Positions 12,297 to 39,648 of a DNA stretch of 64,000 nt are shown piece after piece. Position 1 is the first letter of the stretch. The number at the start of each line of letters is the position of its first letter. The DNA comes from Spirochaetia bacterium (lineage in GTDB: Bacteria; Spirochaetota; Spirochaetia; UBA9216). The translations under genes and the position numbers were made by a program. The notes under the pieces are model-generated. The model was not told the DNA's origin. It worked only from the letters and a program-made list of their open reading frames with translations, and did not search any database. Location of the stretch: NCBI GenBank assembly GCA_965140585.1, contig OZ223272.1, positions 288,001 through 352,000 on the forward strand, written 5' to 3'.

Positions 12297-13045
12297 TTCT
12301 TAAGGTAGACGGTCTGAGTTTTGCTTATAAAAGCCGCCGGGTTATTGATGATGCAGGCTTTGAACTCAAAGAGGGCGAAATACTTTCAATTCTCGGTCCG
12401 AACGGCGCGGGAAAAACGACTCTTCTAAAATGCCTCAACCTCATACTTTCTCCTGACAGGGGCACAGTTTTAATTGACGGAAAAAACTGCCGTGATATCG
12501 GCCATGGTGAAATGGCCAGAAAGACAGGCCTTGTAGCCCAGCATTCCGAACCCGTCAGAATGAAGGTATATGATTTGGTTCTGCTTGGAAGAAAACCTCA
12601 CTTTCACTGGTCTCCGCGAAAAGAAGATCATACCATAGTTGAAGAAGCTATCAAGCTGATGGGCCTGGAAGAGCTTGCACTCCGCTATGCCGACGAGTTA
12701 AGCGGCGGGGAGTTCCAGCTTGTCCAGATAGTCCGGGCTCTTGCCCAGAGCCCCAGACTGATACTTTTTGATGAACCGACAAGCAGTCTGGACATCAGTC
12801 ACCAGCATCAGCTTATGGCAAGAATCAGCACCTTAATCCACTCAAAACCGATGGCTGCCGTAATGACAATGCACGACATTAATCTTGCGCTCCGCTACTC
12901 AGATAAATTTCTGCTTATCAGGGAAGGCCGGGTACATGCTGCAGGCGGGAAAGAGATAATAAATCCTGAGAATATTAAAGAGGTTTACGGGATGGAATCT
13001 GCTGTAACAGAGGCCTGCGGACATACAATCGTTATTCCGGTTTGA
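12293..13045 (+). CDS. FecE/BtuD-type ABC ATPase
   Basis: GPNGAGKTT, LSGGEFQ, LFDEPTSSLD, MHDINLA. Confidence 0.92.
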   Translation: MILKVDGLSFAYKSRRVIDDAGFELKEGEILSILGPNGAGKTTLLKCLNLILSPDRGTVLIDGKNCRDIGHGEMARKTGLVAQHSEPVRMKVYDLVLLGRKPHFHWSPRKEDHTIVEEAIKLMGLEELALRYADELSGGEFQLVQIVRALAQSPRLILFDEPTSSLDISHQHQLMARISTLIHSKPMAAVMTMHDINLALRYSDKFLLIREGRVHAAGGKEIINPENIKEVYGMESAVTEACGHTIVIPV

Positions 13046-13587
13046 TATGGAAAACCTCAATGTCTGAAATAGTAAAAACTGTCGAATTTCAGCTTCAACG
13101 ATATCCTCTTTCAAGACTGAAAGATATCTACAAAAGCTTCTTTCAGGATGAGTTCGGTCCGGGTCATATACTTGAAGCTCCGGAAGAGGCCATTAACTAT
13201 CTTAAAAAGGAGCTTTCCACTGCAAAAAGCCAGAGCCGTTATGAAGCGGAGCTCTGCGGAACCGGAAAACACTTTTGCCGTATATCTTTAGATCTAATCA
13301 TAGACGGCAGAATCAGTTTAGACCGGTATTTCTCTGAATTCATTTCCGGTGCAGCAGACTTCGCCCTCCCTGAAATTGGAGAGTGGAAAATCAAATGGAA
13401 TAATATACTGGAGAAACTGAAACCTTTGAGCCATGTAATCAACAACTTCGATGAGGATTCTGTATTTATACTCAGGAACCTTGAAGAAGGAAAGTATGCA
13501 ATGCACCACAGCAGTCTGTATAGACAGGCATATGATCCTCATTACCGGATTTTTAGAATCAGTAATTCAAATTTTGATATTTCGTAA
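13042..13587 (+). CDS. Conserved hypothetical protein, last gene of the ABC operon (start may be 13060)
   Basis: Protein-like sequence with DIYKSFFQDEFGPGHI and MHHSSLYRQAYDPHYRI. Confidence 0.65.
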   Translation: MIWKTSMSEIVKTVEFQLQRYPLSRLKDIYKSFFQDEFGPGHILEAPEEAINYLKKELSTAKSQSRYEAELCGTGKHFCRISLDLIIDGRISLDRYFSEFISGAADFALPEIGEWKIKWNNILEKLKPLSHVINNFDEDSVFILRNLEEGKYAMHHSSLYRQAYDPHYRIFRISNSNFDIS

Positions 13588-13624
13588 AAAGAAGGCGCCG
13601 GAAACCGTGAAGGGCTTCCGGCGC
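13586..13624. terminator. Terminator hairpin between convergent genes
   Basis: GCGCCGGAA/TTCCGGCGC stem preceded by an A run (U tail on the minus strand). Confidence 0.7.
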
Positions 13625-13648
13625 AAAGTGAAGGAATACAAAATGAAA

Positions 13649-16060
13649 TTATAAAGTATGGGACATTCGGTTAATTACCTCGTCCTGAATACCGTCTGTA
13701 AGGCGTGTGAAGTAGGCACTGTAGCCTGCAACCCGAACAACCAATTCAGGATGATCCTCGGGATGAACCTTTGCATCAACCATATCTTCACGGTTAACAA
13801 TATTAAACTGAATATGCTTACCGCCGTTAGTCAGGTAGGTCTTAATCAAGGCCCCGAGTTTCTTTAAATCACTTTCAGTTTTCATGTTCGTAGGATGAAA
13901 CTTCATGTTCATCAGTGTTCCCTGGTAGGGATCCTGGTTGACTTTCATGGCACTCTTGAAAACTGCTGTAGGTCCGTGGACATCCTGACCATGATCGGGA
14001 GACAATGAAGCATCTGCAAGAATCTCTCCGCCCTTTCTTCCATCTGCAGTAGCTCCTGTACAGGCGCCGCCGGGCTGATGTGCAGAAATTGAAATTGCGT
14101 TCGGCTTGAGCGAATCACCATAGGCGCATGGCAGGCTGTGGCAGGTATCGGCATGGAGCTGATAAACTTCTGCAACCATTGCATCAACTTCAGAATCATC
14201 GTTACCGTATTTGGGCACTGCAGCAAAATCAGTCTGCATTTCTTCATATCCAACCCAGTCTGCATCAAGGGCTTCCATCAGCTGCTTCATGGTGTATTTC
14301 TTTTCATCGAAGACAAGCTTCTTGATGGCGTACATGGCGTTACCTGTATTTACACCGCCGACTGCGCCGAGAACCGCACCGTTTTCAAAATCAAAACGGC
14401 GGTTAAACATATCCTTACCAACCTTGACCCCGTCTTTCATAAGTGAAGATCTGAAGACATCCGGAAAGAGATCACGCTCTGCTATAAGCTCTACGTTGAT
14501 TCGCTCATTTGCCATGCTCATCAGATGTTTTATCTGGGCATGCATTGCAGCCTTGAACTCATCAAAGGTTTTCATTTCAGTGACATCGCCTGTCTGCATA
14601 CCGACCATTTCCTCTGTATAGCGGCAGTATCCGTTATGCATGCAGATATCCATAGCCTGGGGTATGATAAAAAAGCAGGCTACCTGAGTTCTGGTTACAG
14701 AAGGAACGTTGGCATCAACACAACCTGTTGCTACATAATCTCTGGCAACTTCAATCGAAAGCTTGTTTTTGTCGCTCTGTGAAGTAAAGAAGTTGATGTT
14801 TGATTCATCACCGAGAAAGGCTGGAAGACCGAGTCCGCTTCTTACGCACTCAAGCGCCTTAACCATCAGTTTTTCAGGAGTTCCTTTATGAACACGGACA
14901 GTTATGGTGTGGTGGGGAAGATGCGTATCGAGTGCCGCATCAAGAAGAAGATAGCTCAGCTCATTTGTAGCATCGCTGCCGTCAGCCTTCTGACCGCCGA
15001 TTGTCCAGTTATACCACTTTGCCATACCCGCATTCTTTGCCCTGTTTGCCTTTCCTGATACACGGTTGATTTTCATAACTTTGCAGCGCATGATTTCAAG
15101 GAGTTCGAGAATCTTATCGTCATCGCTTCGGCCGCTGTCGATATCGGCCTTATAGAAGGGATACATGTACTGATCAAAACGGCCGGCTGTTGATGTAGGT
15201 GAAGGACATACGAGCAGGAAGGTAAACCAGAAAGACTGCAGTGCTTCATGGAATGTTTCAGCAGGTTCATATGGAACCTTGCGGCAGATTCTGGCCATCT
15301 CGACAAGTTCAGACTTTCTGTCGGCATTGCTTTCAGCCTCAGCCATCTTCTCGGCAAGATCAGCATAACGGCCTGCAAAGCGGACCCATGCTTCATAAAC
15401 AATGATTATACCTTCCCAGAAGTTTCTCTTTTCGATTGCATCTGAAGAATCATAGCGGAGGTCAAGAAGACACTGCTTTGCTTCTTCAATTACAGACTTT
15501 GCTCCGCCGTTAAGGATACGTGAGTAGTCAATTCCAACCAGAGAAAAGCCCGGGCCCAGACCGTATCCTGACATTGCAAATCCGCCGCCGGAACCTCCGG
15601 TTCTGTCCTTCCATGGAGGAAGTATTGTTCCTGATTTCATGAAAGGCCATAGACGTTCTGTCATTCCGAGAGATTTACCCATTGTCTCAACCAGGTTGCT
15701 GTTGAGTGAATTTCCGGCAAAGCGTTCGTTGAGTTCGTAAAGTTCTTTCTCATCTTCAGGATCGATGGTATAGATTTCACTTTTAAGCGACTCTACTTCA
15801 TCCTGTGTCCAAACGCCGTATTCATACTGCATCTCAAGACCGAAGGGCTTGCTTGCACCTGAGCCGCAGAGTAAGTCATCCTCTTCAATAAATATATCAA
15901 TGTTATCAAGAATATGTGCGTGCAGTTTTGATCGGCGCAGCAGCATCGGCTCTCCGGCTGTCATATCCAGCGACTCATTTGCCAGCCTGAACAGCTGAAT
16001 ACACAGCGGATATTTATTGACCCGCAGACTTTCTTTCATTCGTTCAACACGACCTGTCAT
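13649..16060 (-). CDS. Glycyl radical enzyme (PFL superfamily), function unknown
   Basis: C-terminal HIQFN...LVVRVAGYSAYF glycyl loop, GRFDQY, PKYGND, GATADGR, single-Cys loop TGCVD. Confidence 0.95.
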   Translation of the reverse strand: MTGRVERMKESLRVNKYPLCIQLFRLANESLDMTAGEPMLLRRSKLHAHILDNIDIFIEEDDLLCGSGASKPFGLEMQYEYGVWTQDEVESLKSEIYTIDPEDEKELYELNERFAGNSLNSNLVETMGKSLGMTERLWPFMKSGTILPPWKDRTGGSGGGFAMSGYGLGPGFSLVGIDYSRILNGGAKSVIEEAKQCLLDLRYDSSDAIEKRNFWEGIIIVYEAWVRFAGRYADLAEKMAEAESNADRKSELVEMARICRKVPYEPAETFHEALQSFWFTFLLVCPSPTSTAGRFDQYMYPFYKADIDSGRSDDDKILELLEIMRCKVMKINRVSGKANRAKNAGMAKWYNWTIGGQKADGSDATNELSYLLLDAALDTHLPHHTITVRVHKGTPEKLMVKALECVRSGLGLPAFLGDESNINFFTSQSDKNKLSIEVARDYVATGCVDANVPSVTRTQVACFFIIPQAMDICMHNGYCRYTEEMVGMQTGDVTEMKTFDEFKAAMHAQIKHLMSMANERINVELIAERDLFPDVFRSSLMKDGVKVGKDMFNRRFDFENGAVLGAVGGVNTGNAMYAIKKLVFDEKKYTMKQLMEALDADWVGYEEMQTDFAAVPKYGNDDSEVDAMVAEVYQLHADTCHSLPCAYGDSLKPNAISISAHQPGGACTGATADGRKGGEILADASLSPDHGQDVHGPTAVFKSAMKVNQDPYQGTLMNMKFHPTNMKTESDLKKLGALIKTYLTNGGKHIQFNIVNREDMVDAKVHPEDHPELVVRVAGYSAYFTRLTDGIQDEVINRMSHTL

Positions 16061-16243
16061 AGTAAACCCCTTATTTATGCATTAATTGCGATTTAAATTT
16101 TCTATGTAATAAATCAGTTGGCTAAGCCTAACATGTTTATTCTTTAAATAAAAACAAATCATCCCCGGAAAATTAAAGTCTGTGACATGCATACAAACAG
16201 CCTTCCGGGTAATGTGCTCATTGCATATGCAAAAGCATATGTT

Positions 16244-17404
16244 CTAAGCAATAATAACCTCATCCCCTTCTATGCTGTACGCAGTTTCTATATTCATCAT
16301 CTGATCAATATTCTTCATGTAATCAAATATAGTATTAAATAGCGGATCATCATTCTTCACCGCGTAGGGCTTGAAATCATCAGGAATGTAGACCGGAATA
16401 TAGGAGACGCGATCTATCTTTTTGTCTTTAACTGAAATCTTGGCTATCATTGAATAGTAGCAGTCTTCAGGGAAGGTCTTTGCCGCGTTGCCGGTGCCGA
16501 ATCCCTTGCGTATCTTGGCCATCTCCTGATGTTTTTTTGACGTACGCATATCCTGACGCAGAGTTTTTTTATCGCGTTCCATTTTATCAGGGTCGGTCAT
16601 TGCAAAATTGCCCAGTGAATAGAAGATAACCTTACCCTTGTAGACTTCGATAGGTTTGAGGATATGAGCATGGTGCCCCAGAATTAGATCCGCCCCGGCA
16701 TCAATTGCTTCATATGCATATTCTCTCTGATACTCGGCAATCTCGGCCTTGGTAAAATGAATACCCCAATGCATTGAAACAACAACTATATCAGCCTGCT
16801 TTTTAGCCTGAGCAATATCATCAAGCAGATGCACCTTGTCCTGTTTGTGAGCCCAGCTGTGCACTCTGCAGGGTGTTCCCGGCTGATCATGCTCTATCTG
16901 CTCATAGTATGTATGCCCGCGTGCAGGGTTAACACCGGGACGGGCTTCCTGCGCCCAGTAATCCTGCGGCAGTATTGTGCAGTAGCCGAGAAAGGCAATC
17001 TTTGTTCCGTCACGCTCAATCACTGAAAAGCGGCGGGCGTCTTCTTCGTTTTCACCGGCGCCGATAACTTCCATACCTGCATTCCTCAGATAATCAACTG
17101 TATTAAGGAAATGAAAACGGCCGTAGTCAAGCGAGTGGTTTGAGGCGAATGATACTATATCAAAGCCGGCATCCTTAAGCACCGGAGCTACTTTCGGATC
17201 TGAAGAGCAGGGCATTCGAGCCTGTGAAGCAGCAAATGGAAACAGGTCATCAATTTTTTCATCGATGAGAACGGTTTCAAGCTGACCGAATGTAATATCA
17301 GCATCCTGAAGTATTGGTGCAACATGGTCGTACAGACCATCATAGTATCCCATTCCCGGAATATTATCTCCTACCCCCAGAATGGTTATGTTTTCTTTAT
17401 TCAT
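16244..17404 (-). CDS. CapA/PGA_cap-family metallophosphoesterase-fold hydrolase (cytoplasmic)
   Basis: VGD, GQLE, ASNHSLDYG, SMHWG, GHHAH, YSLGNF. No signal peptide. Confidence 0.88.
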   Translation of the reverse strand: MNKENITILGVGDNIPGMGYYDGLYDHVAPILQDADITFGQLETVLIDEKIDDLFPFAASQARMPCSSDPKVAPVLKDAGFDIVSFASNHSLDYGRFHFLNTVDYLRNAGMEVIGAGENEEDARRFSVIERDGTKIAFLGYCTILPQDYWAQEARPGVNPARGHTYYEQIEHDQPGTPCRVHSWAHKQDKVHLLDDIAQAKKQADIVVVSMHWGIHFTKAEIAEYQREYAYEAIDAGADLILGHHAHILKPIEVYKGKVIFYSLGNFAMTDPDKMERDKKTLRQDMRTSKKHQEMAKIRKGFGTGNAAKTFPEDCYYSMIAKISVKDKKIDRVSYIPVYIPDDFKPYAVKNDDPLFNTIFDYMKNIDQMMNIETAYSIEGDEVIIA

Positions 17405-17418
17405 ATATTTAATCCTTA

Positions 17419-18798
17419 TTAAAGAAGTTCTGTAAACTCGCAGATGTTTTTACAGTCTTCGAGAGTTCTGATTGAAGATTTCAGCAGGTCAAGTTCCTGC
17501 TGAGTCTTAGGGTTAACTGCATTTTGTGCGCAGGAATCAAACTTCAGAGCAAACATGTTTTCATCCATCGGATTCTCAGGAGTACCGAAGGGGTTTGTAA
17601 CCATGCGTTCAAATGTACCTACGGCGGTTTCGATAACAACCTTAGTCCAGGCCTCCTTTCCCCGCTGCCAGTCTTCCATATATGTATAATCGATAAGTGA
17701 AGCCAGAGCCCTGACTTGCTTATCCTGAAGGTTTTCCTTACTGAAACTGTTTAAATCAACATTCCCCTTGATTAGAGCTGTAGCCATTGTAAAGGGAATA
17801 CTGAACTTCCCAATTATTGATGATTCGGGATTCCGTCTTTCATCAAGCGGCTCAAAAAGCATTTTGTTCTGAGCTCCGATTGAGACCTGAATATGTTTTA
17901 TGTCTTCAGCCTTTACATTCTCTTCTTTCGCAATAATTGAAGCTGCGGTGATTGATGAATGAGTTCCCAAACAGCAGGGCCATACCTTGAATGTAAGATC
18001 GCCTGCCTCGTAATGAATACCCAGACCGTCAAAGGCCTTCTCTGCGGTATAGTTGTCATGAAGAAATGCATGATAAAAGCCAAGCTCCCCTTCAAGCGGG
18101 GCATCAAAACCAGTAAGCCCCTCCCGGGCCATACAGCAGGCGACAATAGCATTTCTGGCAGTAAAGGATTCACGAATGGACCTTAGAGCAGTATTCGGAT
18201 TGTTGACGAGCTCACTACTGCAGGTGCTTTGACAGAGATTAAAAGAAAAAGCGCTTACAATCTGCTCAGCATTTAAACCCATAATCTTTGCAACAGCCGC
18301 GGTTGCTCCGTAGGATGAATAGATTGTGGGGATGTAAAATCCGTACTCAAGTGTATTAACATCGGCTGCCAGGGCAATGCGGACTGCAACCTCGCTTCCG
18401 AGCACCAGGGCTTCAAGAAGTTTTTTGCCTGATACGTTTCCCATCGTCTCTGCCATTGCCAGAGCTGCAGGAAAACTTGATGAGTTTGAATGGATTGTGC
18501 TTCGTAAATGAGTATCTCCGAAATCCAGAGAGTGCGCCATTGAAGCATTGGCAAACGCCGCCCAGGCTGCGGGCAGACGTTCCCGGAATCCTATTACAGC
18601 AGCTTCCCCGCTTCCTCCGGCCGACAGTTCCTTCGCAATTTTAAGCATCTGGCTGCAGCCGTCCCCCAGACCGGAAGCGCCGAGTGTAATTGCCACGGCA
18701 TCCATCACCGATTTCTTCTGAGTCTCTATAACACGCGGATCAATATCATCATATACAGTTTCTGCCACAAATTCTGCGAGAGTATGGGAAAGGTTCAT
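17419..18798 (-). CDS. MmgE/PrpD-family protein
   Basis: AAFANASMAHSLDFGDTH...H, LEGELGF, FKVWPCCLGTH, KFSIPF, PFGTPENPM. Confidence 0.92.
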   Translation of the reverse strand: MNLSHTLAEFVAETVYDDIDPRVIETQKKSVMDAVAITLGASGLGDGCSQMLKIAKELSAGGSGEAAVIGFRERLPAAWAAFANASMAHSLDFGDTHLRSTIHSNSSSFPAALAMAETMGNVSGKKLLEALVLGSEVAVRIALAADVNTLEYGFYIPTIYSSYGATAAVAKIMGLNAEQIVSAFSFNLCQSTCSSELVNNPNTALRSIRESFTARNAIVACCMAREGLTGFDAPLEGELGFYHAFLHDNYTAEKAFDGLGIHYEAGDLTFKVWPCCLGTHSSITAASIIAKEENVKAEDIKHIQVSIGAQNKMLFEPLDERRNPESSIIGKFSIPFTMATALIKGNVDLNSFSKENLQDKQVRALASLIDYTYMEDWQRGKEAWTKVVIETAVGTFERMVTNPFGTPENPMDENMFALKFDSCAQNAVNPKTQQELDLLKSSIRTLEDCKNICEFTELL

Positions 18799-18834
18799 AA
18801 AGACTCCTGGTAATCTTTTATTTCTTTTAATACA

Positions 18835-18855
18835 GGGAAGCCCTTAGGGCTTCCC
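18835..18855 (-). other. Intra-operon GC-rich stem-loop after tctC
   Basis: GGGAAGCCC-TTA-GGGCTTCCC, no U tail. Confidence 0.5.
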
Positions 18856-18889
18856 CAATTGGTTTTATTTTTAAATGTTAAGCGGGGGA

Positions 18890-19978
18890 TTATTTTGCCA
18901 TTTCAACAATATCTTTAATTATTGGATCAAGTCTGTTCCATTCATCCATAACTTCTTTACCCGGCCATGTGTAGTACTTTGAAGTTCCGCCGTTAATAAG
19001 AGTTCTCTCATAGTAATCACCCTCTGTCTCTGCGCCGAGAGCATCAATGACTTCTGCAATTTGAGCAACAATTTCATCAGGAGTGGCTGCCGGAGCTACG
19101 AACATTGAGCGGTTGGGAATAGCAAGAGCCTTGCCTTTTTCTTCACCGAAAACATCGATAAGTGTAGGAACACTCATGATGATGTCCTTTTCTTCACCGT
19201 CTTTGTAGTAGGAATAATCAGCATTGTCACGTGAGTTGATGATTGCCTTAACCTTGTCATCCTTGAGGTAGCCGCTGGCTGCCCATTCATCAAGAATAAT
19301 TATATTTATATTTCCGCCTAAAAGGCCGGCAGAGGCATCTGCATTTGTAGTTGAAACCCATCTGATATCTTTTGCTACGCCGGTTCCGTTAAACAGACCC
19401 TTCATTTTGATATCCATAACTTTTCCGGCAATAGAGGCTACTGTTACTTTTCCGGGGTTGGCTTTTGCATATGCTGCAAGTTCTTCCCAGTTGCTGTAGG
19501 GCTGATTTGCTTGAGTTACGAGAATACATCCTGAATCCGGATAGGGCTGAATAGCTCCGCATACAAGCTTAAACTGGCTTGTATCGCAGGGGTTAACTGA
19601 CCACAGACCACTGTAGTAGTTTGCAATACAGTTCATACCGATAAGCATAAGAGTCTGTCCGTCCGGATCAGCATGAACAAGCTGGGTAGCAAGGTTGGCC
19701 CCGCCGCCTGTATCGTTGTTCTCAATTCGAACTGTTGCACCTGTCTTGTCTGTAATCCAGTCTGCTACTGTATGGATATTGATATCGGTCCTTGAACCGA
19801 CAGCATAACCTGCCAGAATTGTAATGTCACCATTGGGCCATGATGCTGATTCAGAAGATTTAGCTGATGAACCTTCTGCGGATTTTGTTTTGTCACAACC
19901 GGAGAGACTGAAGATCAGTCCAACTGCTATGAGTAATACAATTACCTTTTTCATTTCTTCCTCCAAATTTATATTCAA
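18890..19978 (-). CDS. tctC: TctC/Bug-family tripartite tricarboxylate transporter binding lipoprotein (start possibly MKKV at 19954)
   Basis: Lipobox LSGC, WPNGDITIL.GY..G..TD, GGGAN...ADPDGQTL, APAATPDE. Confidence 0.85.
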   Translation of the reverse strand: MNINLEEEMKKVIVLLIAVGLIFSLSGCDKTKSAEGSSAKSSESASWPNGDITILAGYAVGSRTDINIHTVADWITDKTGATVRIENNDTGGGANLATQLVHADPDGQTLMLIGMNCIANYYSGLWSVNPCDTSQFKLVCGAIQPYPDSGCILVTQANQPYSNWEELAAYAKANPGKVTVASIAGKVMDIKMKGLFNGTGVAKDIRWVSTTNADASAGLLGGNINIIILDEWAASGYLKDDKVKAIINSRDNADYSYYKDGEEKDIIMSVPTLIDVFGEEKGKALAIPNRSMFVAPAATPDEIVAQIAEVIDALGAETEGDYYERTLINGGTSKYYTWPGKEVMDEWNRLDPIIKDIVEMAK

Positions 19979-20022
19979 ATACAGGTTGCCCTGTTATTTG
20001 CGAAGATTTTTAAAATTTCCAT

Positions 20023-21543
20023 TTATTTGACTGCTGCCGCAGCTTTTCTTTCGGCTATGGCCTTCTTGATAACAGGTCCCACGAAACCGTATATAAGAAC
20101 ACCAAGTCCTACTATGATAAATACGCAGGATATAGGTCTGCGGAAAAACTCTGAAAAACCGTTTATTGAATAATTCAGCCCCCTTCTGATATTAAGTTCA
20201 AGCATGGGCGAAAGTATGAATGCCATCAGAAAAGGCAGACTCGGCACCCCGAAGACATCCATAACTATCCCCAGCAGACAGAAGAACAGCGCGACCATCA
20301 GACCGAAGAAGCTTCCTGTAGTCATGAAAGCACCGGTCAAAGCCAGAATTACAACCATTGAATAGAGGTAGTGATAGGGAATCTTCAGCAGAGCTGGAAA
20401 GGTCTTCATACAGAATGTTTCATACAGAAGACAGATTACTGCAGCAATAAGGGCTGCAATAAAAATGATGTAAACGATCATCGGCTGTTCACGCATGAAC
20501 ATCGGACCTACGTTTATTCCCTTAACATTCAGGGCAGTAATAAACTGAACATTGGCCGCGTCTCCGGGAATACCCAGTGCGATAAGCGGAATAAGAGCAC
20601 CGCCGATTGCGGAGTTCTTGGCAATTTCGGGACAGAGAACACCGGCAATCTCACCCTTGCCCCATTTGGACTTGTCCTTTGCAAGCATTCTCTCGGTGGA
20701 ATAGCCCATAACAGAGGCAACAGGACCGCCGAGGCCCGGAAGGAATCCTACAACAGCACCGAGGATCCAGGATCTCAGTACGGGAAGTTTATTCTTTGAA
20801 AGGTCTTTTCCGGGCCACTTGTACCCGCCGACCTTGATATCGATTTTCTGTTCAGTCTTACTTGCCCTCGCATATTCAAGTAGAATAATCTTGGCGGCAA
20901 AAAGGCCAAGCATTACGCTGATAAGGTTCAGGCCCTTTAGGAACTCAAGACGTCCGAAAAGTAAAAAACGTCCGCTTGCATTTATGGGGTCTTCACCGAT
21001 TGAAGCCAGAAAGATTGCAAGGCCTACACCAATCATACTCTTTACGAGGTTGCCTTTGGACAGTCCTACAACCATCAGAATTGCGCAGAAACATAAGGCG
21101 GCATATTCCCATGGCCCAAGTTTAACCGCCCATATTGCAATGCCGCGGCAGGCAAAGATTGCAAGGATGATTGAAGGGAAGGTTCCCAGAAAGTTAACTG
21201 TTACCGCTGCGCTTAAGGGGCGGACAGGGTCTCCCTGCTTGGTAAACTCGTACCCGTCCCAGACCGTTGCCAGCGAAGAGGCAGTGCCTGGAATTCCCAG
21301 AAGAATTGAACCGATACATCCGCCGGACATACCTCCTATTACAATTGAAATAAACAGCGCCAGAACCAGGTTGGTATCCAGACGATAGGCTATAGGTAAT
21401 AAAATTACCATCAACGTTGAGCTTCCCAGGCCGGGAATAGCTCCAAGCACGATTCCGCCCAGGGCTCCCGCTATTATGTATATAAGTCCTGTAGGCGTAA
21501 AAATATTATGCAGTGCACCAAAAATTAAATCCATTATTTCCAT
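20023..21543 (-). CDS. tctA: TctA tripartite tricarboxylate transporter permease
   Basis: GAIPGLG, ILLGIPGTASSLAT.WDG, GFLPGLG, PEIAKNS..GGALIPLIALGIPGD. Confidence 0.92.
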   Translation of the reverse strand: MEIMDLIFGALHNIFTPTGLIYIIAGALGGIVLGAIPGLGSSTLMVILLPIAYRLDTNLVLALFISIVIGGMSGGCIGSILLGIPGTASSLATVWDGYEFTKQGDPVRPLSAAVTVNFLGTFPSIILAIFACRGIAIWAVKLGPWEYAALCFCAILMVVGLSKGNLVKSMIGVGLAIFLASIGEDPINASGRFLLFGRLEFLKGLNLISVMLGLFAAKIILLEYARASKTEQKIDIKVGGYKWPGKDLSKNKLPVLRSWILGAVVGFLPGLGGPVASVMGYSTERMLAKDKSKWGKGEIAGVLCPEIAKNSAIGGALIPLIALGIPGDAANVQFITALNVKGINVGPMFMREQPMIVYIIFIAALIAAVICLLYETFCMKTFPALLKIPYHYLYSMVVILALTGAFMTTGSFFGLMVALFFCLLGIVMDVFGVPSLPFLMAFILSPMLELNIRRGLNYSINGFSEFFRRPISCVFIIVGLGVLIYGFVGPVIKKAIAERKAAAAVK

Positions 21544-21555
21544 TATTTTTTATCC

Positions 21556-22050
21556 TCAGTAGAGAAGTTTAAATACCAAACCTTCGGGAAGCCTTGCGTT
21601 AAGACCTACAACATACGCAAGGTATACACAAACGCTGGCAATTACCGCATAGATAAGGCTTTTCAGAATACGCTTTTTCAGCTCAAGCTCCTTCAGCGAC
21701 AGCCTGCTCATAAGAAAGGTAAGAGTGAAGGCAATAATCGGAAGAGAGAGCATAAATCCCAGAAGGAAAAACAGAAGAGCAACTCCGATATAAACACCGA
21801 ACATGGTAAGTGCCGAGAGCCACTGTTTACGGGTAAGGAAGGTACCCGCCACCTTACCAGGCTTGATAATCAGCGCAATTCCGCAGATAAGCATAATTGC
21901 GGCACCGGTCATCGGGAACATTTTGGGACCCGGGTCACCGTCATATCCTGAAGCCCTGAGCTGCATTGAAAGAATAGTAATCAACGCAGCAATCACAATA
22001 GTAGCAACACCAAGGATAAAATCTTTCTTGTTTTTTATATATTCAGTCAT
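21556..22050 (-). CDS. tctB: TctB small membrane subunit
   Basis: DPGPKMFP motif, 4 TM segments, C-terminal LPEG. Confidence 0.88.
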   Translation of the reverse strand: MTEYIKNKKDFILGVATIVIAALITILSMQLRASGYDGDPGPKMFPMTGAAIMLICGIALIIKPGKVAGTFLTRKQWLSALTMFGVYIGVALLFFLLGFMLSLPIIAFTLTFLMSRLSLKELELKKRILKSLIYAVIASVCVYLAYVVGLNARLPEGLVFKLLY

Positions 22051-22109
22051 TTTGAAATTTCCGTTTTAAATAGTTTGGGTCTGAGCGCAGCACGAGGCGG
22101 GCAATTCAT
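22047..22109 (-). CDS. 20-aa upstream mini-ORF (MNCPPRAALRPKLFKTEISK) coupled to tctB
   Basis: AAAGGAG SD, 6 nt, ATG at 22109. Its TGA overlaps the tctB ATG (ATGA). Confidence 0.45.
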   Translation of the reverse strand: MNCPPRAALRPKLFKTEISK

Positions 22110-22208
22110 GTAGATCTCCTTTAATAAAAATTTTCTTTTCCTTTGATTCTCAGGCTAACACGTTTTAGTTTTTCCTTAAAAATCATTTTTTAAAGACGCC
22201 CGATAACC

Positions 22209-22255
22209 TGTGATAAAAGCACATTAATGGAAGTAATTTTTGTACTTTTCGCACA
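22209..22255. promoter_or_regulatory. Two candidate PucR/CdaR-family operator sites
   Basis: TGTGATAAAAGCACA (22209-22223) and TGTACTTTTCGCACA (22241-22255), both TGT-N9-ACA, 32 bp apart. Confidence 0.45.
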
Positions 22256-22351
22256 CCGGCCTGCTCAAACGGTTTAATTCGACAAAACCAGCGATTAAGA
22301 ATATAATCAAGCCTTAAGTTCCGTTTTTAAACATTCAGGAGTACAAAAACA

Positions 22352-23917
22352 ATGCTTTATCTGTCATATCTATTCCAGCATCTGAGGCAGTGCACCGTTT
22401 ACGCCGATGAAAAGAACCTGCCGGAAACATGCCCGCAGGAAGTTGATTTTATAGATGATCAGAAAAGCCTTTGCGCAGATAAGACATGGATAGGCGCGGG
22501 CGAGGAAACAGTAAGAAATCTTCAAAATGCCGAAATTGAACCCGGTACTGTAATTTTTATATGTGAACACAAATCAAATTATGTGATCCTGAACAAGAAT
22601 CCTGAAATTACGGTTATATACCTTTCCTGTCCGCGGACGAACCTTTTTATTATGATCAACAAAATACTCACTCTCAGGCAGATCTGGCTTGATAAATATG
22701 CCACAGCTGATGATCAGTCCTTATACGCAATGCTTAATCTGACATCCGATTTTGCAGAATCTCCGGTCATTCTGCTGAATCCGAATTACCGCATCGTACT
22801 CAGCTGCAAATTGGAAGAAAGCAAATTTCTAGCCGGACATCTGGACCAGACAGGAGCTCTCCCAAAAAAAATTGCAGACTCTATTTTTATAAACAGATCG
22901 GAGAAGCATTTACCGGTTGAATACAAGGTAGCCGAGAGCGGTATTCGCCTTTACGGATACCGGATATATCACGAGGATCAGCTTGTTAGTGTTATCTTGA
23001 TTGAAAGCAGCATTGAACAGACCGAGATTGACTGCAGGGGATTATGCGTCTGTGCCGGACAGGCGATTCACCGCCACATACTGCCGGCCAATTCGCTGAA
23101 GCTTGGAACCTATACAAAGGACTTCAGACAGTTCTGGATGGAAATAATGGATCAAAGCCTGACCCAGACCTTCGAGATAATTCAGAGACTGAGGCTGATG
23201 CCCTTTCCAATTGAAACCTTTGTCCGCGTGATTGTTGTAACATTCCGGAATAAAAACACAAAGCAGACGCCCTCAAGTTTTATATTTGCACAGCTGCGCG
23301 AAGTGTTTCCGGACTGCAATATGACGATTCACGAGAATGAGGTTGTGATTCTTCAAACCTATCCACAGCGGACATTCAACCTAAACCTTGACACAAAAAG
23401 GCTTGAAACCATTCTTGAGCGGCACAACGGTTTCATTGGGATAAGCAACGGAACCAGGGATTTCGGAAACCTGCGCTCACTCTATATTCTGGCAAAAAAC
23501 ACAATTCCGCTGGCCTGCGAACTTAGGGAGAACCTAAAAGAGAGGATATTCTTTTACGAGGAGTTCTGGATATATACCGCAATAGATATGTGCGCTCACA
23601 GGTTTTACGAACTTCATCACCATAACGACATAGTCTATCTGATTCATCCGGCGGTTGTGCACCTGACCAGATACGACAGGGATCATAACACAAACCTTAG
23701 GGACACCCTGTTTTATTATCTGCTGAATGACCGCAACCTGGTAAAAACAGCGGCGGTTACCTATGCTCACAGAAATACAGTCATAAATAAGGTTAATAAA
23801 ATCAACAAACTCATTGAGCTTGATCTTGAGGACGGCATTCTGCGTCAGCGTATTATATTCTCATGCCAAATGATAAGGTATCATGAAAAGTACATGAAAC
23901 GCGAACTGAAGATATAA
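22352..23917 (+). CDS. PucR/CdaR-family transcriptional activator
   Basis: C-terminal LTRYDRDHNTNLRDTL.YYL...NLVKTA...AHRNTV..KVNKI HTH. Divergent from the tct-GRE operon. Confidence 0.88.
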   Translation: MLYLSYLFQHLRQCTVYADEKNLPETCPQEVDFIDDQKSLCADKTWIGAGEETVRNLQNAEIEPGTVIFICEHKSNYVILNKNPEITVIYLSCPRTNLFIMINKILTLRQIWLDKYATADDQSLYAMLNLTSDFAESPVILLNPNYRIVLSCKLEESKFLAGHLDQTGALPKKIADSIFINRSEKHLPVEYKVAESGIRLYGYRIYHEDQLVSVILIESSIEQTEIDCRGLCVCAGQAIHRHILPANSLKLGTYTKDFRQFWMEIMDQSLTQTFEIIQRLRLMPFPIETFVRVIVVTFRNKNTKQTPSSFIFAQLREVFPDCNMTIHENEVVILQTYPQRTFNLNLDTKRLETILERHNGFIGISNGTRDFGNLRSLYILAKNTIPLACELRENLKERIFFYEEFWIYTAIDMCAHRFYELHHHNDIVYLIHPAVVHLTRYDRDHNTNLRDTLFYYLLNDRNLVKTAAVTYAHRNTVINKVNKINKLIELDLEDGILRQRIIFSCQMIRYHEKYMKRELKI

Positions 23918-23928
23918 GGTTCCCCGGA

Positions 23929-24777
23929 TTAAGAAAAATTATTCCTGCACATATCGACAATCTCGTCCCTGCGGTCAACGCCCAGCTTGTCCCTGATATG
24001 CTTCATATGCTCTTTAAGTGTATAGGGTGAGATCCCGAGCCTTTCAGCCAATGCTCTGTCCCTTTCCCGGTAAACAACCAGAGCCTCAATAACCTCCATC
24101 TCTCTGGGAGTAATACCCATGGAGTCAAGATCGGCAGGCTGGGTCAGCTGTCTGTACACCAGATCAAGATCATCAAGCTTGTTCTGCAGGCGGGTCCGCT
24201 CCATCTCTATCCGGCTCAGTTTATTTTCAGCCTCGGTTGTTAATTTTACGTAATAGATTATTTCATTTGAATAGATAGTGTATAGGACACCTATAAAGAC
24301 AAGGATATACATTATTGCATCCAGGCCGGCATTCCAGTGCACCACACCGCTCTGAAGCCTTGCAGCAATTTCAATAATAACAAATATTATACCTATAAAT
24401 AGAAATATCTTTAAAAGGGGCTTCTTCTCAAAGAGACCGTAGCGGAAACCGATTATCAAAGCAAGGATAACCAGGCCCAGTCCATGGAAGGAATTATAAA
24501 CATCAAGAATTGCAATTGCACCTACAAGAAAGAAGATACACAGCTGAACATACCTTAAGAAATTGATGTCCTTAAGTGAAGTTAAGAAGGTAATGATTGA
24601 AACTGCAAGTATAACGCTTACGGAAGGATACAGCAGTGCATCAAGAACTGAGACTCTTTGCAAAAGACCGACAAAGTTAATAATTACAACAAGCATCCCA
24701 AGAGAGGAAACTATGTAGGCGATTCTTTTTTGTACCTTAAAAACCGAAGATTTTTTAGCTGATATCCCAGAAGCCAT
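23929..24777 (-). CDS. Membrane-anchored LuxR-family regulator (about 6 TM + coiled coil + HTH)
   Basis: GITPREMEVI...LAERLGISPYTLKEHMKHIRDKLGV. Hydrophobic N-half. Start at 24777 or 24783, overlapping the upstream gene. Confidence 0.85.
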   Translation of the reverse strand: MASGISAKKSSVFKVQKRIAYIVSSLGMLVVIINFVGLLQRVSVLDALLYPSVSVILAVSIITFLTSLKDINFLRYVQLCIFFLVGAIAILDVYNSFHGLGLVILALIIGFRYGLFEKKPLLKIFLFIGIIFVIIEIAARLQSGVVHWNAGLDAIMYILVFIGVLYTIYSNEIIYYVKLTTEAENKLSRIEMERTRLQNKLDDLDLVYRQLTQPADLDSMGITPREMEVIEALVVYRERDRALAERLGISPYTLKEHMKHIRDKLGVDRRDEIVDMCRNNFS

Positions 24778-25364: not shown

Positions 25365-28300
25365 TTATTCAATATATAGACAAACTTCACCCATAAGCCC
25401 CGCAGCTTCAGTTACATACTCCGGGGTGAAGGCCGCACCGGAGGGATGAAAATCTTCCCAGCTTATTCTGCTGCAGACATCTGCAGATCTGTGAAGCGGC
25501 CCAAGAAGGTTGCGAAGGTTTCCGACTATCTCAATTTCAACCGAGACAAGCCCGGCTGTAGGGGCAATTTTACCACTGACGTCAATATCCGTCTCACGAA
25601 GGGCAAAGACAGGCTGATTTCCGCCAATTCTAATTACGGCAAGAGCACCGCGGAACTCACCCAGGTGAAGCATCAGCCGTCGACCCTCAGAAGCCTTAAT
25701 CTCAGGCAGTGCTGCTGCAGGAATTTCATACTGGTAGATACAGCTGCCCGGGTAATGCTTCAGCCCCTGAAGCGACCAGTCTCCCCGCTCAAGAACCGAC
25801 GGCATTTCGATAATGCGGCGGGACGGGCTGACCCCGAAACTTCCTGTAATGTAGATATCTTCAAGCTCGGTTGATGAGCAGTACATCAGATCTATTTCAA
25901 GCACATTCTCACCGGCTACAAGCGCAGGAATCCGGTGCTTGATAAAATCTTCATCGATAAACCACTGTTCTGTCTGTTCACAGGCCCTGGAATTACAGCT
26001 GATTTTCATCCCTGCGGATTTTTCAACTGCCGCAAAGACTTCTCTCTCGGGGATGCAGTCCGCGGTAAAAGAGAACCGCAATGAAAGCGGATACTCTTTT
26101 TTATCATCAATCCAGAGGTAGCGCTGGGGTGCACCGTTGTAGTGGACAGCCTGCATGCCAAAACGTTCGCGGATAATCTTCTGAGCCTGCCATACCGGCA
26201 GCTCATCACTCCATGCCTCATCGGCAATTCTGAAACTGCAGATATCAAGGGTAAGATCGTTTTCACTTGTAAGCCTGACAGGAGAGACAGCGGGAAATCC
26301 GTAAACAAGCTCAACAGAATCATGGGGATGCCGATAGTAGAGCGAAAGAGCCTGGGATACTTCAGGTTCAGCGGTCTCATCAATAAAAAAGACCACAGTT
26401 TCCTCTGCTTCAAATGAGAGCCTGCAGTTCATTCCGCCCTGATTATCAAGTTCAACAGGAACTATGGACTGATCTCCGGAAAGCAGATCAAGCCGGGTAA
26501 GCCTTCCCCTGTCGGCGAATTTCAGAATAAGTCCATCAAGTTTTTCAGCAGCGGTATTTACAATTGTAACAGCCCTGCCCGTTTCAAGGGTACGGGTCAT
26601 CGAAAGCAGCCGGTCACAGTCGGTTCCGAATCCGTCACATATCCGCACCGGCCTTTGAACCATGGATGACATCAAGGAGACAAGCTCCCCTAAACGGCCT
26701 GCAGGATGTACGCGGAAATGACCTGTAAGCTCTGCTATCTTTCCGGATTTTTCAGCATCAACGTATTCAGGATAGGGAGTCATCCAGAAGATATGCCCCC
26801 CTGATTCAAGAAACCCGCTTAGAAGCTCAATGGTAGAGGCCATCAGAGTCTGAAGCGGCGGAACTATTACATAAGAATACCGGTGGTAACCAACCTGCAG
26901 TTTATCTCCACTTACGGCCGCGGAATCTTTCATGATAAGCTCATCACCGAAATCAAAATCAAACTGACGGGCAAGAAGTTGATGTGTCAGCTGGTTGTAG
27001 TAGTCGCCTTCGCGATTGAGATTCATCAGATGCCCATCAAGCCAGCCCATGTTCATGTACACTTTTGAAAGATCTTCATCAGCAGAACTGCCCGACTTCA
27101 TCCAGAACGTTCCCACCGGATGAATCATGAGGATATCGCGGTGAACCTCCCCGGAGGTCGTGCAGACACCCAGGCGTGCAAAGTAGTCTTCCATAAAATG
27201 AGAATATTCCCAGAATGTTGACTGATAGTTGAAAGCCGGCGGATAATCACGCTTTCTGCAGCCGCTTATCGAGTAAAGAGTCAGATGCTGACACCTTTTG
27301 TTGACACCCATCACATACTGCCAGTCTCCAAGACGTTTCTGACCGGCAAAAGAGAACTCCCAGCCGGTGCATCCGTACATCTCTGACAGGACCATTTCGC
27401 GGCGGAACTGGTTGGCAACGCTTGTACACTGTTTTACCGTAAGATACTCACTGCGCTGATCACCAAGCAGGTCTATTCCGGGAGCATGCATATAGCGGTA
27501 GTGCGGCATAACCGCCCCGTTGCAGCGGACGCCGTAGCCGAGATCGTTTTCATAAAGCATATGGCCGGTAAGTTTTACATCATGCCCTTCACACCAGTCA
27601 TAGAGCTGTCTTGTATATGAAGAAACAAAGATTTCGGTAAGTGTAAGCCAGTAATCATAGCGGGCCTTTCCCGAGCCTTCGCCCTTAAAGAAAAGAAACG
27701 GCAGGATGCCTAAAATCTCATATCCGCGGGATTCTTTAAAATACTGTGAAAAAGAATCGGTCCATGGAAGCCAGGGCCGCCCCTGTGTAAAATTCGCGAA
27801 AAAGTCACAGACGTTGGGTTCATCAGTAAAAAAGCCCTTGATTGCCGTGCCGAGTTTTTCACCGAAGCGGTCGGCATAAGCCTTATGGGTTTTATTCAAA
27901 AACAGGCGGACCGCTTCCGGGTTCATGTTATCGCTTGGCGCAGAGCCGTTATACCATTCCGAGGGGCCTGAGAGCTCTCTTCTGAAAACCAGAAAGCGCT
28001 TTTCTTCACCGGGGCCAGCGTAGGGCTCAGCAGGGAAGACCGCTAGAATATCGGCGTCGTTGGAGGGGGTTTTGTTTGTGCTTATTTCAAGGGTCAGTGC
28101 TTTGGCTGAAAAATGCTGCGGATTGGCAGCGCTTACCGCCCCCCCGACACTGCCGGAGGGCCAGGTGTCCTCATCATAGATCCAGACTTCCATGCCAGAT
28201 TTTTCGGCATGATTCAGGGCTGCATCTGTACAGTCCATCCACTCATCTGAAAGGTACTCTGTTTCAAGCCCTTCCCGTGAATGAATGAAAAAGCCGCCTA

Positions 28301-28439
28301 TGCCCTGCTCTTTCATCAGATCAATCTGACCGGTAAGCCTTTCGGGCCGGAGTGAATCGTTCCAGGCCCAGAAGGGTGCTGAACGGTACTTCGGTGAAGC
28401 CTCGTTCAGCCTTTTGTTTATCTCATCGAGTGTATCCAT
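25365..28439 (-). CDS. Cytoplasmic glycoside hydrolase, GH106 (alpha-L-rhamnosidase)-like
   Basis: PFWAWN, GIGGFFIH, WIYDEDTWPSG, GFFTDEP, PGIDLL, LSEMYG, KRDYPP. No signal peptide. Confidence 0.75.
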   Translation of the reverse strand: MDTLDEINKRLNEASPKYRSAPFWAWNDSLRPERLTGQIDLMKEQGIGGFFIHSREGLETEYLSDEWMDCTDAALNHAEKSGMEVWIYDEDTWPSGSVGGAVSAANPQHFSAKALTLEISTNKTPSNDADILAVFPAEPYAGPGEEKRFLVFRRELSGPSEWYNGSAPSDNMNPEAVRLFLNKTHKAYADRFGEKLGTAIKGFFTDEPNVCDFFANFTQGRPWLPWTDSFSQYFKESRGYEILGILPFLFFKGEGSGKARYDYWLTLTEIFVSSYTRQLYDWCEGHDVKLTGHMLYENDLGYGVRCNGAVMPHYRYMHAPGIDLLGDQRSEYLTVKQCTSVANQFRREMVLSEMYGCTGWEFSFAGQKRLGDWQYVMGVNKRCQHLTLYSISGCRKRDYPPAFNYQSTFWEYSHFMEDYFARLGVCTTSGEVHRDILMIHPVGTFWMKSGSSADEDLSKVYMNMGWLDGHLMNLNREGDYYNQLTHQLLARQFDFDFGDELIMKDSAAVSGDKLQVGYHRYSYVIVPPLQTLMASTIELLSGFLESGGHIFWMTPYPEYVDAEKSGKIAELTGHFRVHPAGRLGELVSLMSSMVQRPVRICDGFGTDCDRLLSMTRTLETGRAVTIVNTAAEKLDGLILKFADRGRLTRLDLLSGDQSIVPVELDNQGGMNCRLSFEAEETVVFFIDETAEPEVSQALSLYYRHPHDSVELVYGFPAVSPVRLTSENDLTLDICSFRIADEAWSDELPVWQAQKIIRERFGMQAVHYNGAPQRYLWIDDKKEYPLSLRFSFTADCIPEREVFAAVEKSAGMKISCNSRACEQTEQWFIDEDFIKHRIPALVAGENVLEIDLMYCSSTELEDIYITGSFGVSPSRRIIEMPSVLERGDWSLQGLKHYPGSCIYQYEIPAAALPEIKASEGRRLMLHLGEFRGALAVIRIGGNQPVFALRETDIDVSGKIAPTAGLVSVEIEIVGNLRNLLGPLHRSADVCSRISWEDFHPSGAAFTPEYVTEAAGLMGEVCLYIE

Positions 28440-28448
28440 CTGCTGTTA

Positions 28449-30238: not shown

Positions 30239-30344
30239 TTCCTACATCCTACCTATAAATTTGCCTTAGAAAAATTAAGGAGGACCTCCGCAGGGAAGGT
30301 CTCTCCTTTAAAGAATAATTTGTTAAAATTTGATTCGCCAGTTT

Positions 30345-31355: not shown

Positions 31356-31398
31356 AAATTGCTCCTTTAGTTGAATCTATTATCTCCCCTGTCTGGGG

Positions 31399-32325: not shown

Positions 32326-32459
32326 CCTCAAGATCCTTCCTGTATGAATCCATATTTTTATTAGTGGTTCGGATTCATCTGTAGTATAATAGTGTGTGCT
32401 TAAATTGGACATTCAGGATTATCTTTAGTACTTTTCCAAACATCAGGAGGGGAATTTTA

Positions 32460-37741: not shown

Positions 37742-37750
37742 AGTATCCTC

Positions 37751-39638: not shown

Positions 39639-39648
39639 GAAACGATAT

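Follow-up and report, generated by a model that had tools for sequence, protein, structure and literature searches.

A Cys-x-Asp glycyl radical enzyme and its variable partners in a Spirochaetia operon possibly devoted to uptake and radical catabolism of an anionic metabolite

The subject of this analysis is a stretch of 64,000 nucleotides from a Spirochaetia bacterium (GenBank assembly GCA_965140585.1, contig OZ223272.1, positions 288,001 to 352,000, forward strand; hereafter, the window) and, within it, a locus of seven intact genes at positions 13649-23917 that includes the gene for a glycyl radical enzyme (GRE). In this locus, the gene of a PucR-type regulator on the forward strand is divergent from six co-oriented genes on the reverse strand, which encode the three subunits of a tripartite tricarboxylate transporter (TTT), a protein of the MmgE/PrpD family, a PGA_cap/CapA-like protein, and the GRE (Table 1). 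An earlier note on this DNA had described the same layout, and the open reading frames (ORFs) lie exactly where it had placed them; the GCVD and RVAGYS loops and the Gly-rich insert that it had quoted for the GRE are all present as well. All seven genes score far above the respective Pfam gathering thresholds, and the gaps among the six operon genes range from 12 to 183 bp. The divergent intergenic region contains a promoter-like site upstream of the PucR gene (22279-22307, forward strand; 11 of 12 positions match), and the terminator-like hairpin downstream of the GRE gene closes the transcription unit. The palindromic hairpin that follows the binding-protein gene might, for example, stabilize the transcript or cause partial termination at this point. 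A search of positions 13000-24500 against Rfam yields no match (E <= 0.1).

Table 1. Genes and sequence elements of the GRE locus (positions in the window)
Feature	Position	Strand	Evidence or remark
PucR/CdaR-type transcriptional regulator	22352-23917	+	HTH_30 40.1 bits, E 3.1e-10
Divergent intergenic control region	22051-22351	.	holds promoter-like site
TctB, small membrane subunit of TTT importer	21556-22050	-	PF07331 54.4 bits, E 1.9e-14
TctA, large membrane subunit of TTT importer	20023-21543	-	PF01970 363.3 bits, E 1.8e-108
TctC solute-binding protein, apparent lipoprotein	18890-19978	-	PF03401 62.8 bits, E 4.9e-17
Palindromic hairpin between TctC and PrpD-like genes	18835-18855	.	perfect, 9 pairs
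MmgE/PrpD-family protein	17419-18798	-	PF03972 (MmgE_PrpD_N) 200.5 bits; PF19305 (MmgE_PrpD_C) 97.8
PGA_cap/CapA-like protein	16244-17404	-	PF09587 227.4 bits, E 2.6e-67
GRE, 803 aa	13649-16060	-	PF02901 (PFL-like) 485.6 bits; PF01228 (Gly_radical) 98.6
PPW/Gly-rich insert PPWKDRTGGSGGGFAMSGYGLG, GRE aa 148-169	15554-15619	-	
Cys loop GCVD, GRE aa 446-449 (Cys447 thiyl site, Asp449)	14714-14725	-	
Glycyl radical loop RVAGYS, GRE aa 776-781 (Gly779)	13718-13735	-	
Terminator-like hairpin 3' of GRE stop	13624-13595	-	12 pairs, 9 G-C, then T-run

The membership of the protein in the GRE superfamily is clear: it combines the PFL-like barrel with the C-terminal glycine radical domain and contains the RVAGYS loop and a single catalytic cysteine, Cys447. 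As the earlier note had surmised, the protein falls outside every characterized class: twelve NCBIfam models match it, every one below its curated cut-off, and it belongs to a separate clade marked by the Cys-x-Asp loop and the insert (see below). The best match is TIGR01774, the PFL2/glycerol dehydratase subfamily, with a score of 514.5 against the cut-off of 678.2; the others include the models for HpsG (486.6 against 1000), indoleacetate decarboxylase (IAD; 433.7 against 1100), CutC (431.2 against 1050), HpfG (404.4 against 1000), HypD (400.4 against 1100), and the HPAD large subunit (345.3 against 1150). Pyruvate formate-lyase is ruled out by the single cysteine in the GCVD loop, with no adjacent Cys-Cys pair, and by the score of 89.2 against the cut-off of 994.2 for the respective equivalog, TIGR01255. 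Similarly, the protein is not an HPAD or IAD, given the equivalog scores and the lack of a small-subunit gene adjoining the GRE gene, nor a typical CXE eliminase or isomerase, given the C-V-D loop and the scores with the CutC, HypD, HpsG, and HpfG models.

The best PDB relative of the GRE is the B12-independent glycerol dehydratase 1r8w (428.9 bits, E = 3.1e-127), followed by the arylacetate decarboxylase (AAD) 7e7l (E = 1.4e-120). In the alignment with 1r8w, Cys433 and Glu435 correspond to Cys447 and Asp449 of the GRE, Ser282 to Thr, and Tyr339 to Trp349; His164, Asp447, and Tyr640, which we take to be active-site residues of glycerol dehydratase, are replaced by Leu, Val, and Ile, respectively, so that the protein does not qualify as a glycerol/diol dehydratase. 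These residue pairs were mapped by hand, the assignment of Tyr640 being the least certain because one row of the alignment appears to be one letter short, and the roles attributed to GRE residues here combine this alignment with the roles of the glycerol dehydratase residues. The HMMER alignment further shows that, with respect to 1r8w, the Gly-rich stretch is a genuine insertion, located directly N-terminal to the position aligned with His164. A comprehensive 2026 review of GREs (PMC13450708), which covers all characterized classes, confirms His164 and Glu435 as active-site residues of glycerol dehydratase and states that every GRE eliminase and isomerase retains the CXE motif; a word search of this review finds 0 occurrences of "CXD" and "aspartate".

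Thus, with the GRE 1,2-eliminases and isomerases (glycerol dehydratase 1r8w/1r9d, PD, HypD, HpyG, HpzG, CutC, IslA/IseG, HpsG, HplG, YbiW, PflD), the GRE from the window shares the two-domain fold, the RVAGYS loop, the single catalytic cysteine with an acid two positions later and, probably, a mechanism in which the thiyl radical abstracts hydrogen and a base then assists in breaking the bond. It differs from them in the presence of Asp instead of Glu, the 22-aa insert, the scores below all cut-offs, and a genomic context that consists of carboxylate carriers, a PucR-type regulator, and MslH-like and PrpD-like proteins rather than aldehyde-processing or microcompartment genes. It is extremely unlikely that this protein is an ordinary glycerol/diol-type dehydratase or a known eliminase with a conservative Glu-to-Asp change. 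Although glycerol dehydratase is the best PDB match and its subfamily model the best among NCBIfam, the score remains below the subfamily cut-off, the counterparts of His164, Asp447, and Tyr640 are replaced, the Pfam-annotated neighbors in the operon include no aldehyde/alcohol dehydrogenase or microcompartment shell genes, the carriers are of the carboxylate type, and the clade is separate in the tree.

A HMMER scan of 1.84 billion representative proteins started with the GRE from the window produced 7869 matches at E <= 0.001. An alignment of 137 sequences, namely this GRE and those of the best 150 representatives that exceed 700 aa in length (14 shorter matches were excluded), was supplemented for tree construction with the two other intact GRE paralogs of the same genome. 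In the resulting tree, the GRE belongs to a monophyletic clade of 16 tips (13 representatives, the GRE itself, and the two paralogs; SH-like support 0.914). The C-[VIL]-D signature is present in 15 of the 16 members of this clade (the exception has CIP), and a PPW/Gly-rich insert of 22-31 aa in all 16; outside the clade, the loops in the alignment are mostly CxE, with CxD found in only three other representatives. Among the 119 listed close homologs (79-88% identity), GCVD is conserved in 118, and RVAGYS and the PPW...GG insert in every one. Clade-specific residues, defined as those kept in at least 14 of the 16 clade members and in fewer than 25% of the other 123 sequences, include E76, G165, R325, R340, W349, D449, R457, R554, W602, and D731, that is, four arginines (R325, R340, R457, and R554) along with D449 and with W349 at the position of glycerol dehydratase Tyr339. 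The clade breaks the Cys-x-Glu rule that the review (PMC13450708) states for all GRE eliminases and isomerases.

Homologs with 70-88% identity to the GRE come mostly from Lachnospiraceae, Oscillospiraceae, and other gut and rumen Clostridia, and a few Spirochaetia records reach 87-99% identity. Among 300 other sampled Spirochaetota genomes, none encodes a clade-level GRE (the five best proteins score about 670 bits versus at least 1100 bits for clade members). This distribution is compatible with lateral spread. The genome analyzed here encodes three intact clade GREs and one broken copy inside the window, and five other genomes encode from 1 to 4 clade paralogs each (over 1000 bits with the clade profile). 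The C-[VL]-D signature is present in 10 of the 10 parsable further paralogs; in three more, which were left unparsed, the longest ORF is antisense.

The broken copy (33410-35756, forward strand) is the fourth clade paralog of this genome. It shows about 43% identity, contains the same insert, and is interrupted by in-frame stops or frameshifts, which might reflect either pseudogenization or a fault in the assembly. It is flanked by a gene for an AraC-type regulator (32394-33362) and by an Opp/Dpp ABC transporter (35833-41358), beyond which a C69 family peptidase (41300-42967), an enoate-reductase-like flavoenzyme (43942-45858), and a zinc-dependent alcohol dehydrogenase (45878-46933) are encoded.

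The genomic context of the clade was examined by a contig scan that identified 80 loci with a GRE 64-99% identical to that in the window, 30 of which have flanks of 8 kb or more on each side. The ORFs of foreign loci were called crudely and clustered, cluster representatives were annotated with Pfam, and each family was recounted with tblastn panels; given that many contigs are short, the counts are lower bounds, and related genomes are non-independent samples. An activase gene is found near the GRE gene in 50 of the 80 loci (22 of the 30 loci with full flanks), a PucR-type regulator in 41 (21), and a carrier of the MatC/CitMHS type in 29 (16); either MatC or TctA is encoded in 35 loci (20), and TctA itself in 6 (4). 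The conserved core of the clade consists of the GRE, the activase, the PucR-type regulator, and a MatC-type or TTT carrier. The CapA-like gene is present in 28 loci (15) and the PrpD-like gene in 11 (8). Less common neighbors are the S15/CocE-NonD hydrolase (12 loci; 4 with full flanks), a URO-D-like protein (11; 7), an enoate-reductase-like flavoenzyme (9; 4), the family-5 binding protein of Opp/Dpp transporters (8; 5), a 2-hydroxyacyl-CoA-dehydratase-like protein (5; 4), and RidA (5; 2). The recurrent neighbors further include peptidase C69, beta-lactamase-family and CN_hydrolase-family proteins and, in a subset of the loci, CoA transferases.

The association of the GRE with PrpD-like, CapA-like, and TTT genes, on which the earlier note had built its proposal, is thus real and recurrent but does not constitute the core context. 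The complete lack of conserved linkage, which the same note had named as the outcome that would speak against it, is not what is observed: the linkage is conserved, and this gene set recurs as one variant built on a core that is more general. PrpD, CapA, and TctA genes occur together, in different orders, in four loci, namely L043 from a near-identical Spirochaetia record, L068 from a Lachnospiraceae metagenome-assembled genome (MAG), and L078 and L079 from Blautia MAGs. The GRE from the window is 87-88% identical to MatC-linked orthologs from Spirochaetes (L042, L051) and 73% identical to the Blautia orthologs that share the PrpD/CapA/TTT set, and the accessory proteins are 59-73% identical to their Blautia counterparts, except for TctB (44-46%). 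Because the GRE is closer to the MatC-linked orthologs than to those that share the accessory set, this set has been swapped around a conserved GRE.

The two other intact GRE paralogs of this genome, which have the GCLD loop, are encoded in minimal loci with no further enzyme: MerR-activase-GRE-MatC (L097, G000:C6:334764-340342) and GRE-TctB-TctA-TctC-MerR (L096, G000:C7:291686-298302). In five further paralog loci from other genomes, a MatC-type carrier is present in all five, and the PucR-type regulator and the activase in four each.

Such minimal loci, with a GRE, an activase, a carrier, and a regulator but without downstream enzymes, fit a single-step decarboxylation and so bring up the main alternative, namely that the GRE resembles HPAD, IAD, and AAD in being a radical decarboxylase (Kolbe-type or HAT), its substrate being an arylacetate-like acid or else a di- or tricarboxylate, and its product being excreted. 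The known arylacetate decarboxylases (AAD 7e7l, HPAD, IAD) handle carboxylate substrates, as the minimal clade loci appear to do; AAD is the second-best PDB match; the GRE residues aligned with the polar pocket of glycerol dehydratase are hydrophobic (Leu, Val, Ile, Trp); and, according to the review (PMC13450708), the second residue after the cysteine is an acid in HPAD and IAD, too. However, the scores with the IAD and HPAD models are far below the equivalog cut-offs, the Cys loop of AAD, as aligned to the GRE, is GCVL, with no acid, and the HPAD-type small subunit is missing from the operon. In addition, RidA, the 2-hydroxyacyl-CoA-dehydratase-like and enoate-reductase-like proteins, and the CoA transferases that are encoded in subsets of the loci suggest further metabolism of an acid, so that, on balance, a decarboxylase seems unlikely.

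Neither the operon nor the rest of the window encodes a GRE activating enzyme, a point that the earlier note had missed. The genome holds one intact activase of the TIGR02494 type (G000:C6:338496-339434, 356 bits), located beside a 57.5%-identical GRE paralog. Its sequence identity amounts to 74% with the activase encoded in L051, an orthologous operon of Spirochaetales, and to 45-54% with four activases of orthologous loci in Clostridia. The generic activase model is the only one passed by the C6 activase and by one activase of an orthologous locus; neither qualifies as a characterized activase equivalog. The C6 activase, encoded on a different contig from the operon, is the likely candidate for activation of the GRE in trans. 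A second activase gene of this genome (G000:C1:752986-753720), which adjoins the gene of a Cys-x-Glu GRE (C1:750357-752741), is split over three frames and contains a TAA stop.

The lack of an activase in the operon, together with the broken genes in the assembly (a GRE paralog, a PrpD paralog, and the C1 activase), could also mean that the neighborhood is coincidental or that the GRE is silent in this organism. This appears very unlikely, given that the seven genes are intact, the same set is found in a different order in Blautia and other Clostridia, the CapA-like gene tracks the clade GREs (8 of 9 cases, see below), the GRE retains all its motifs and 70-88% identity across phyla, and the genome does encode a closely matching activase, on C6.

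The three TTT subunits are all present and adjacent, as expected of a transporter of this family, and TctA is 69-73% identical to the TctA proteins encoded beside GRE orthologs in L068, L078, L079, and L086. The N-terminus of TctC, MKKVIVLLIAVGLIFSLSGC, reads as a signal peptide with a lipobox. The best PDB relatives of this protein are a terephthalate-binding protein and BugD (E-values from 1e-8 to 1e-11), which are too remote for the ligand to be inferred. Compared with the known TTT systems (TctABC; the Bug proteins, TphC, and AdpC), all three subunits are shared, but the TctC protein from the window is an apparent lipoprotein that is only remotely related to the solved ones, and in most of the orthologous GRE loci, the TTT is replaced by a MatC/CitMHS-type carrier. 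For the PucR-type regulator, the HTH_30 score exceeds the cut-off of 27, there is a weak match to GGDEF_2, and all named equivalogs are below cut-off; the PDB search found no relative.

The PrpD-like protein contains both the N-terminal and the C-terminal domains of the MmgE/PrpD family. Its best PDB match is iminodisuccinate (IDS) epimerase 2hp0 (E = 2.4e-38 over aa 5-424), whereas the matches to cis-aconitate decarboxylases (E of about 1e-23) and to PrpD itself (E of about 4e-8) are weaker. The protein does not qualify as a 2-methylcitrate dehydratase (PrpD), given the scores with the three equivalog models (52 against the cut-off of 575, 43.4 against 950, and 43.1 against 458). Thus, IDS epimerase is the closest characterized relative and shares both domains, but the similarity is remote, so that the PrpD-like protein is not an ortholog, and it differs also in being encoded in an anaerobic GRE operon. 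The window contains a second MmgE/PrpD-like gene (56709-58082, reverse strand), 34% identical to that in the operon and apparently frameshifted: tblastn covers the full length, and the open frame encodes only 239 aa (57363-58082). This gene adjoins a DHDPS-family gene and genes for a sugar-type ABC transporter.

The CapA-like protein lacks a signal peptide and is therefore expected to be cytoplasmic. Its only sequence matches in PDB are entries of MslH, which is a Ca(II)-dependent epimerase of the C-terminal Trp of the lasso peptide MS-271 (PDB 8gq9; PMC10406935). An AlphaFold model of the CapA-like protein built from 13 GRE-linked homologs (mean pLDDT 86.9, pTM 0.90) matches MslH in a Foldseek search with a TM score of 0.78-0.80 and an E-value of about 1e-30; the next folds are generic metallophosphoesterases with TM scores of 0.48 or lower, and 5'-nucleotidases and phosphoesterases occupy ranks 5-50. 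In MslH, the catalytic dyads are His88/Asp91 and His295/Asp11, and the Ca ligands are Glu44, Asn87, His259, and His261 (PMC10406935). Seven of these eight residues have counterparts in the CapA-like protein, namely N89, H90, D93, H212, and H247, which were assigned by alignment, and D13 and E43, which were assigned by motif only. In the 13 GRE-linked homologs, six of these counterparts are invariant, and H212, the counterpart of His259, is nearly so. Thus, the CapA-like protein resembles MslH in the fold and in having conserved counterparts of the catalytic dyads and of the Glu44, Asn87, and His259 ligands. It differs in the lack of a counterpart to the Ca ligand His261, in the score with the MslH NCBIfam model (97 bits against the cut-off of 700), and in the genomic context which, instead of a lasso-peptide cluster, consists of GREs, carboxylate carriers, and Opp transporters. 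The metal-dependent bile salt hydrolases reported in the preprint PMC13081902 are amidohydrolases and not PGA_cap proteins.

Of the nine best CapA-like genes (at least 390 bits; five genomes), eight are located within 10 kb of a clade GRE gene. The exceptional ninth and two lower-scoring copies belong to Opp/Dpp operons with alpha/beta hydrolases or carboxylesterases. These GRE-distant genes (L122 in G002:C9; L123 in G000:C7:245000-264000; L124 in G001:C13) are located at the ends of the respective operons, and the one in L122 adjoins NlpC/P60 and L,D-transpeptidase genes. This context suggests a peptide-related role for the whole PGA_cap subfamily.

The earlier note had proposed that the substrate is hydrolyzed by the CapA-fold protein and then isomerized by the PrpD-like protein; this order of events finds no support, the only close characterized relative of the CapA-like protein being the epimerase MslH. 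A broader alternative is that both proteins act downstream of the GRE, or catalyze true hydrolase or dehydratase steps, rather than being epimerase-type feeders. The MmgE/PrpD family does include dehydratases and decarboxylases, the calcineurin fold is mostly hydrolytic, as reflected in the lower ranks of the fold search, and elsewhere CapA-like genes are located beside genes for esterases and aminopeptidase-like hydrolases. Nevertheless, we consider this alternative improbable because both genes are missing from many orthologous GRE loci, which is more easily explained by optional feeders, and because the nearest characterized relatives of both proteins are epimerases, with the acid/base dyads of MslH invariant.

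The reading of the locus that we tentatively favor is that of an inducible operon by which a small anionic metabolite is taken up and catabolized through radical chemistry; this metabolite most likely bears carboxylates and is derived from amino acids or peptides. Under this hypothesis, the PucR-type protein would activate the divergent promoter, and TctBAC, the family assignment of which is clear, would import the substrate, a precursor, or a stereoisomer. The PrpD-like and CapA-like proteins could then be accessory feeders that convert non-cognate stereoisomers or precursors into the form accepted by the GRE, a role suggested by their nearest characterized relatives, cofactor-independent epimerases that act next to a carboxylate; such an optional role explains the many orthologous GRE loci that lack both genes. 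In the GRE, Gly779 would store the radical, Cys447 would abstract a hydrogen atom, and Asp449 would serve as the acid/base in place of Glu; the most likely outcome would be an elimination or isomerization that yields an oxo- or imino-acid entering central metabolism. The glycyl radical would be installed in trans by the C6 activase (G000:C6:338496-339434). The anionic nature of the substrate is suggested by the presence of carboxylate-type carriers in almost all well-sampled loci and by the four clade-specific arginines. The link to amino acids or peptides is suggested by the Opp/Dpp, S15, C69, beta-lactamase-family, CN_hydrolase-family, and RidA neighbors and by the Opp context of the stand-alone CapA-like genes.

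Several considerations weigh against the catabolic operon hypothesis. Given that the similarity of the PrpD-like and CapA-like proteins to the two epimerases is remote (for the latter, the distance from MslH and the missing Ca ligand are cases in point), they might be a hydrolase, a dehydratase, or a decarboxylase, and they could act after the GRE. The sets of neighbors are heterogeneous, so that there might be more than one substrate. TTT systems also carry sulfonates. In 13 of the 80 loci, none of the activase, PucR, MatC, and TctA genes was detected; 11 of these loci have one or both flanks short or truncated, and the other two, L075 and L076, have full flanks. Finally, activation in trans is an assumption because, according to the review (PMC13450708), each activase is specific for its own GRE, although some cross-reactive ones are noted there.

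As regards the substrate, dehydration of tartrate or hydroxycitrate, sulfolactate, cleavage of tricarballylate, quinate, 5-hydroxylysine, decarboxylation of the malonate type, D-Glu or meso-diaminopimelate from peptidoglycan, and fragments of poly-gamma-glutamate were all considered, and none is singled out by any result.

A bolder and, in our estimate, rather unlikely proposal is that the clade represents a new functional class of GREs, with a novel type of reaction, the substrates of which would be acidic amino acids, or di- or tricarboxylates related to them, released from peptides. If so, the reaction could be, for example, a B12- and CoA-independent radical entry into glutamate- or aspartate-like fermentation, or an unactivated C-C or C-N cleavage; each of the 1-4 paralogs in a carrier genome would be tuned to a different structural isomer or stereoisomer, and the MslH-like and IDS-epimerase-like enzymes would be stereochemical funnels. 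This would amount to a widespread but unrecognized radical pathway for a common nutrient in gut and rumen Clostridia.

Newly assigned GREs have revealed anaerobic host-microbe pathways, such as those from choline to trimethylamine and from isethionate to H2S, as well as those of hydroxyproline and skatole. The clade described here is large (thousands of database sequences), conserved (70-88% identity between Spirochaetia and Clostridia), and without an assigned function; it is carried, in 1-4 copies per genome, by anaerobes from gut, rumen, and sediment including Mediterraneibacter gnavus and Blautia. The recurrent partners, an MslH-like enzyme of the calcineurin fold and an IDS-epimerase-like MmgE/PrpD protein, have no known catabolic role. 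A set suitable for biochemistry is at hand, consisting of the GRE and a matching activase, two binding/transport systems, two accessory enzymes, cultured carriers (Blautia, Mediterraneibacter gnavus, Murimonas intestini, Fusibacter ferrireducens, Youngiibacter fragilis, and Clostridium spp.), and signature residues.

A literature search produced no paper on the clade or on the gene combination; subscription papers and the GRE networks (Levin et al. 2017) were outside its scope, so that this clade may already have been published as a network cluster without a name. The same search found no paper that pairs GRE with PrpD; the combination of glycyl radical and MmgE retrieves only Asgard hydrocarbon genes, that of glycyl radical and PucR only the reference list of a paper on uric acid, and the co-mentions of GRE with tripartite tricarboxylate, among which are papers on Bilophila and taurine, or with dicarboxylate, as far as titles and abstracts go, include none on this system. 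PMC6219649 contains nothing on other unknown GRE clusters.

Some of the neighbors in other loci have additional features. L115 contains a gene for a beta-lactamase-family protein (7030-8628, forward strand), with MatC on one side and a clade GRE on the other; of the NCBIfam models, the one for 3-succinylated cholic acid synthase matches this protein best (200.5 bits against the cut-off of 800). For the enoate-reductase-like neighbor in other loci, the best NCBIfam matches are the BaiCD and bilirubin reductase models, below cut-off. A TPR-repeat protein of about 270-310 aa is encoded next to the activase in L019, L020, L023, L060, L114, and L115, and is followed in L115 by proteins with DUF4037 and DUF4125. 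Antisense ORFs with a median length of 865 aa, at least as long as the GRE, overlap the GRE gene in 16 of the 80 loci (e.g., L076:9929-12493, reverse strand). These ORFs, which probably are an artefact of codon usage, displaced the GRE in a first pass based on length, and this was corrected by the tblastn recount.

Within the window, just beyond a LuxR-type gene that adjoins the PucR gene, a cluster on the reverse strand (25365-32412) encodes a GH106-like alpha-L-rhamnosidase (1024 aa), the TRAP transporter components DctM, DctQ, and DctP, and a DHDPS-family protein; this cluster looks like a separate locus for sugar-acid uptake.

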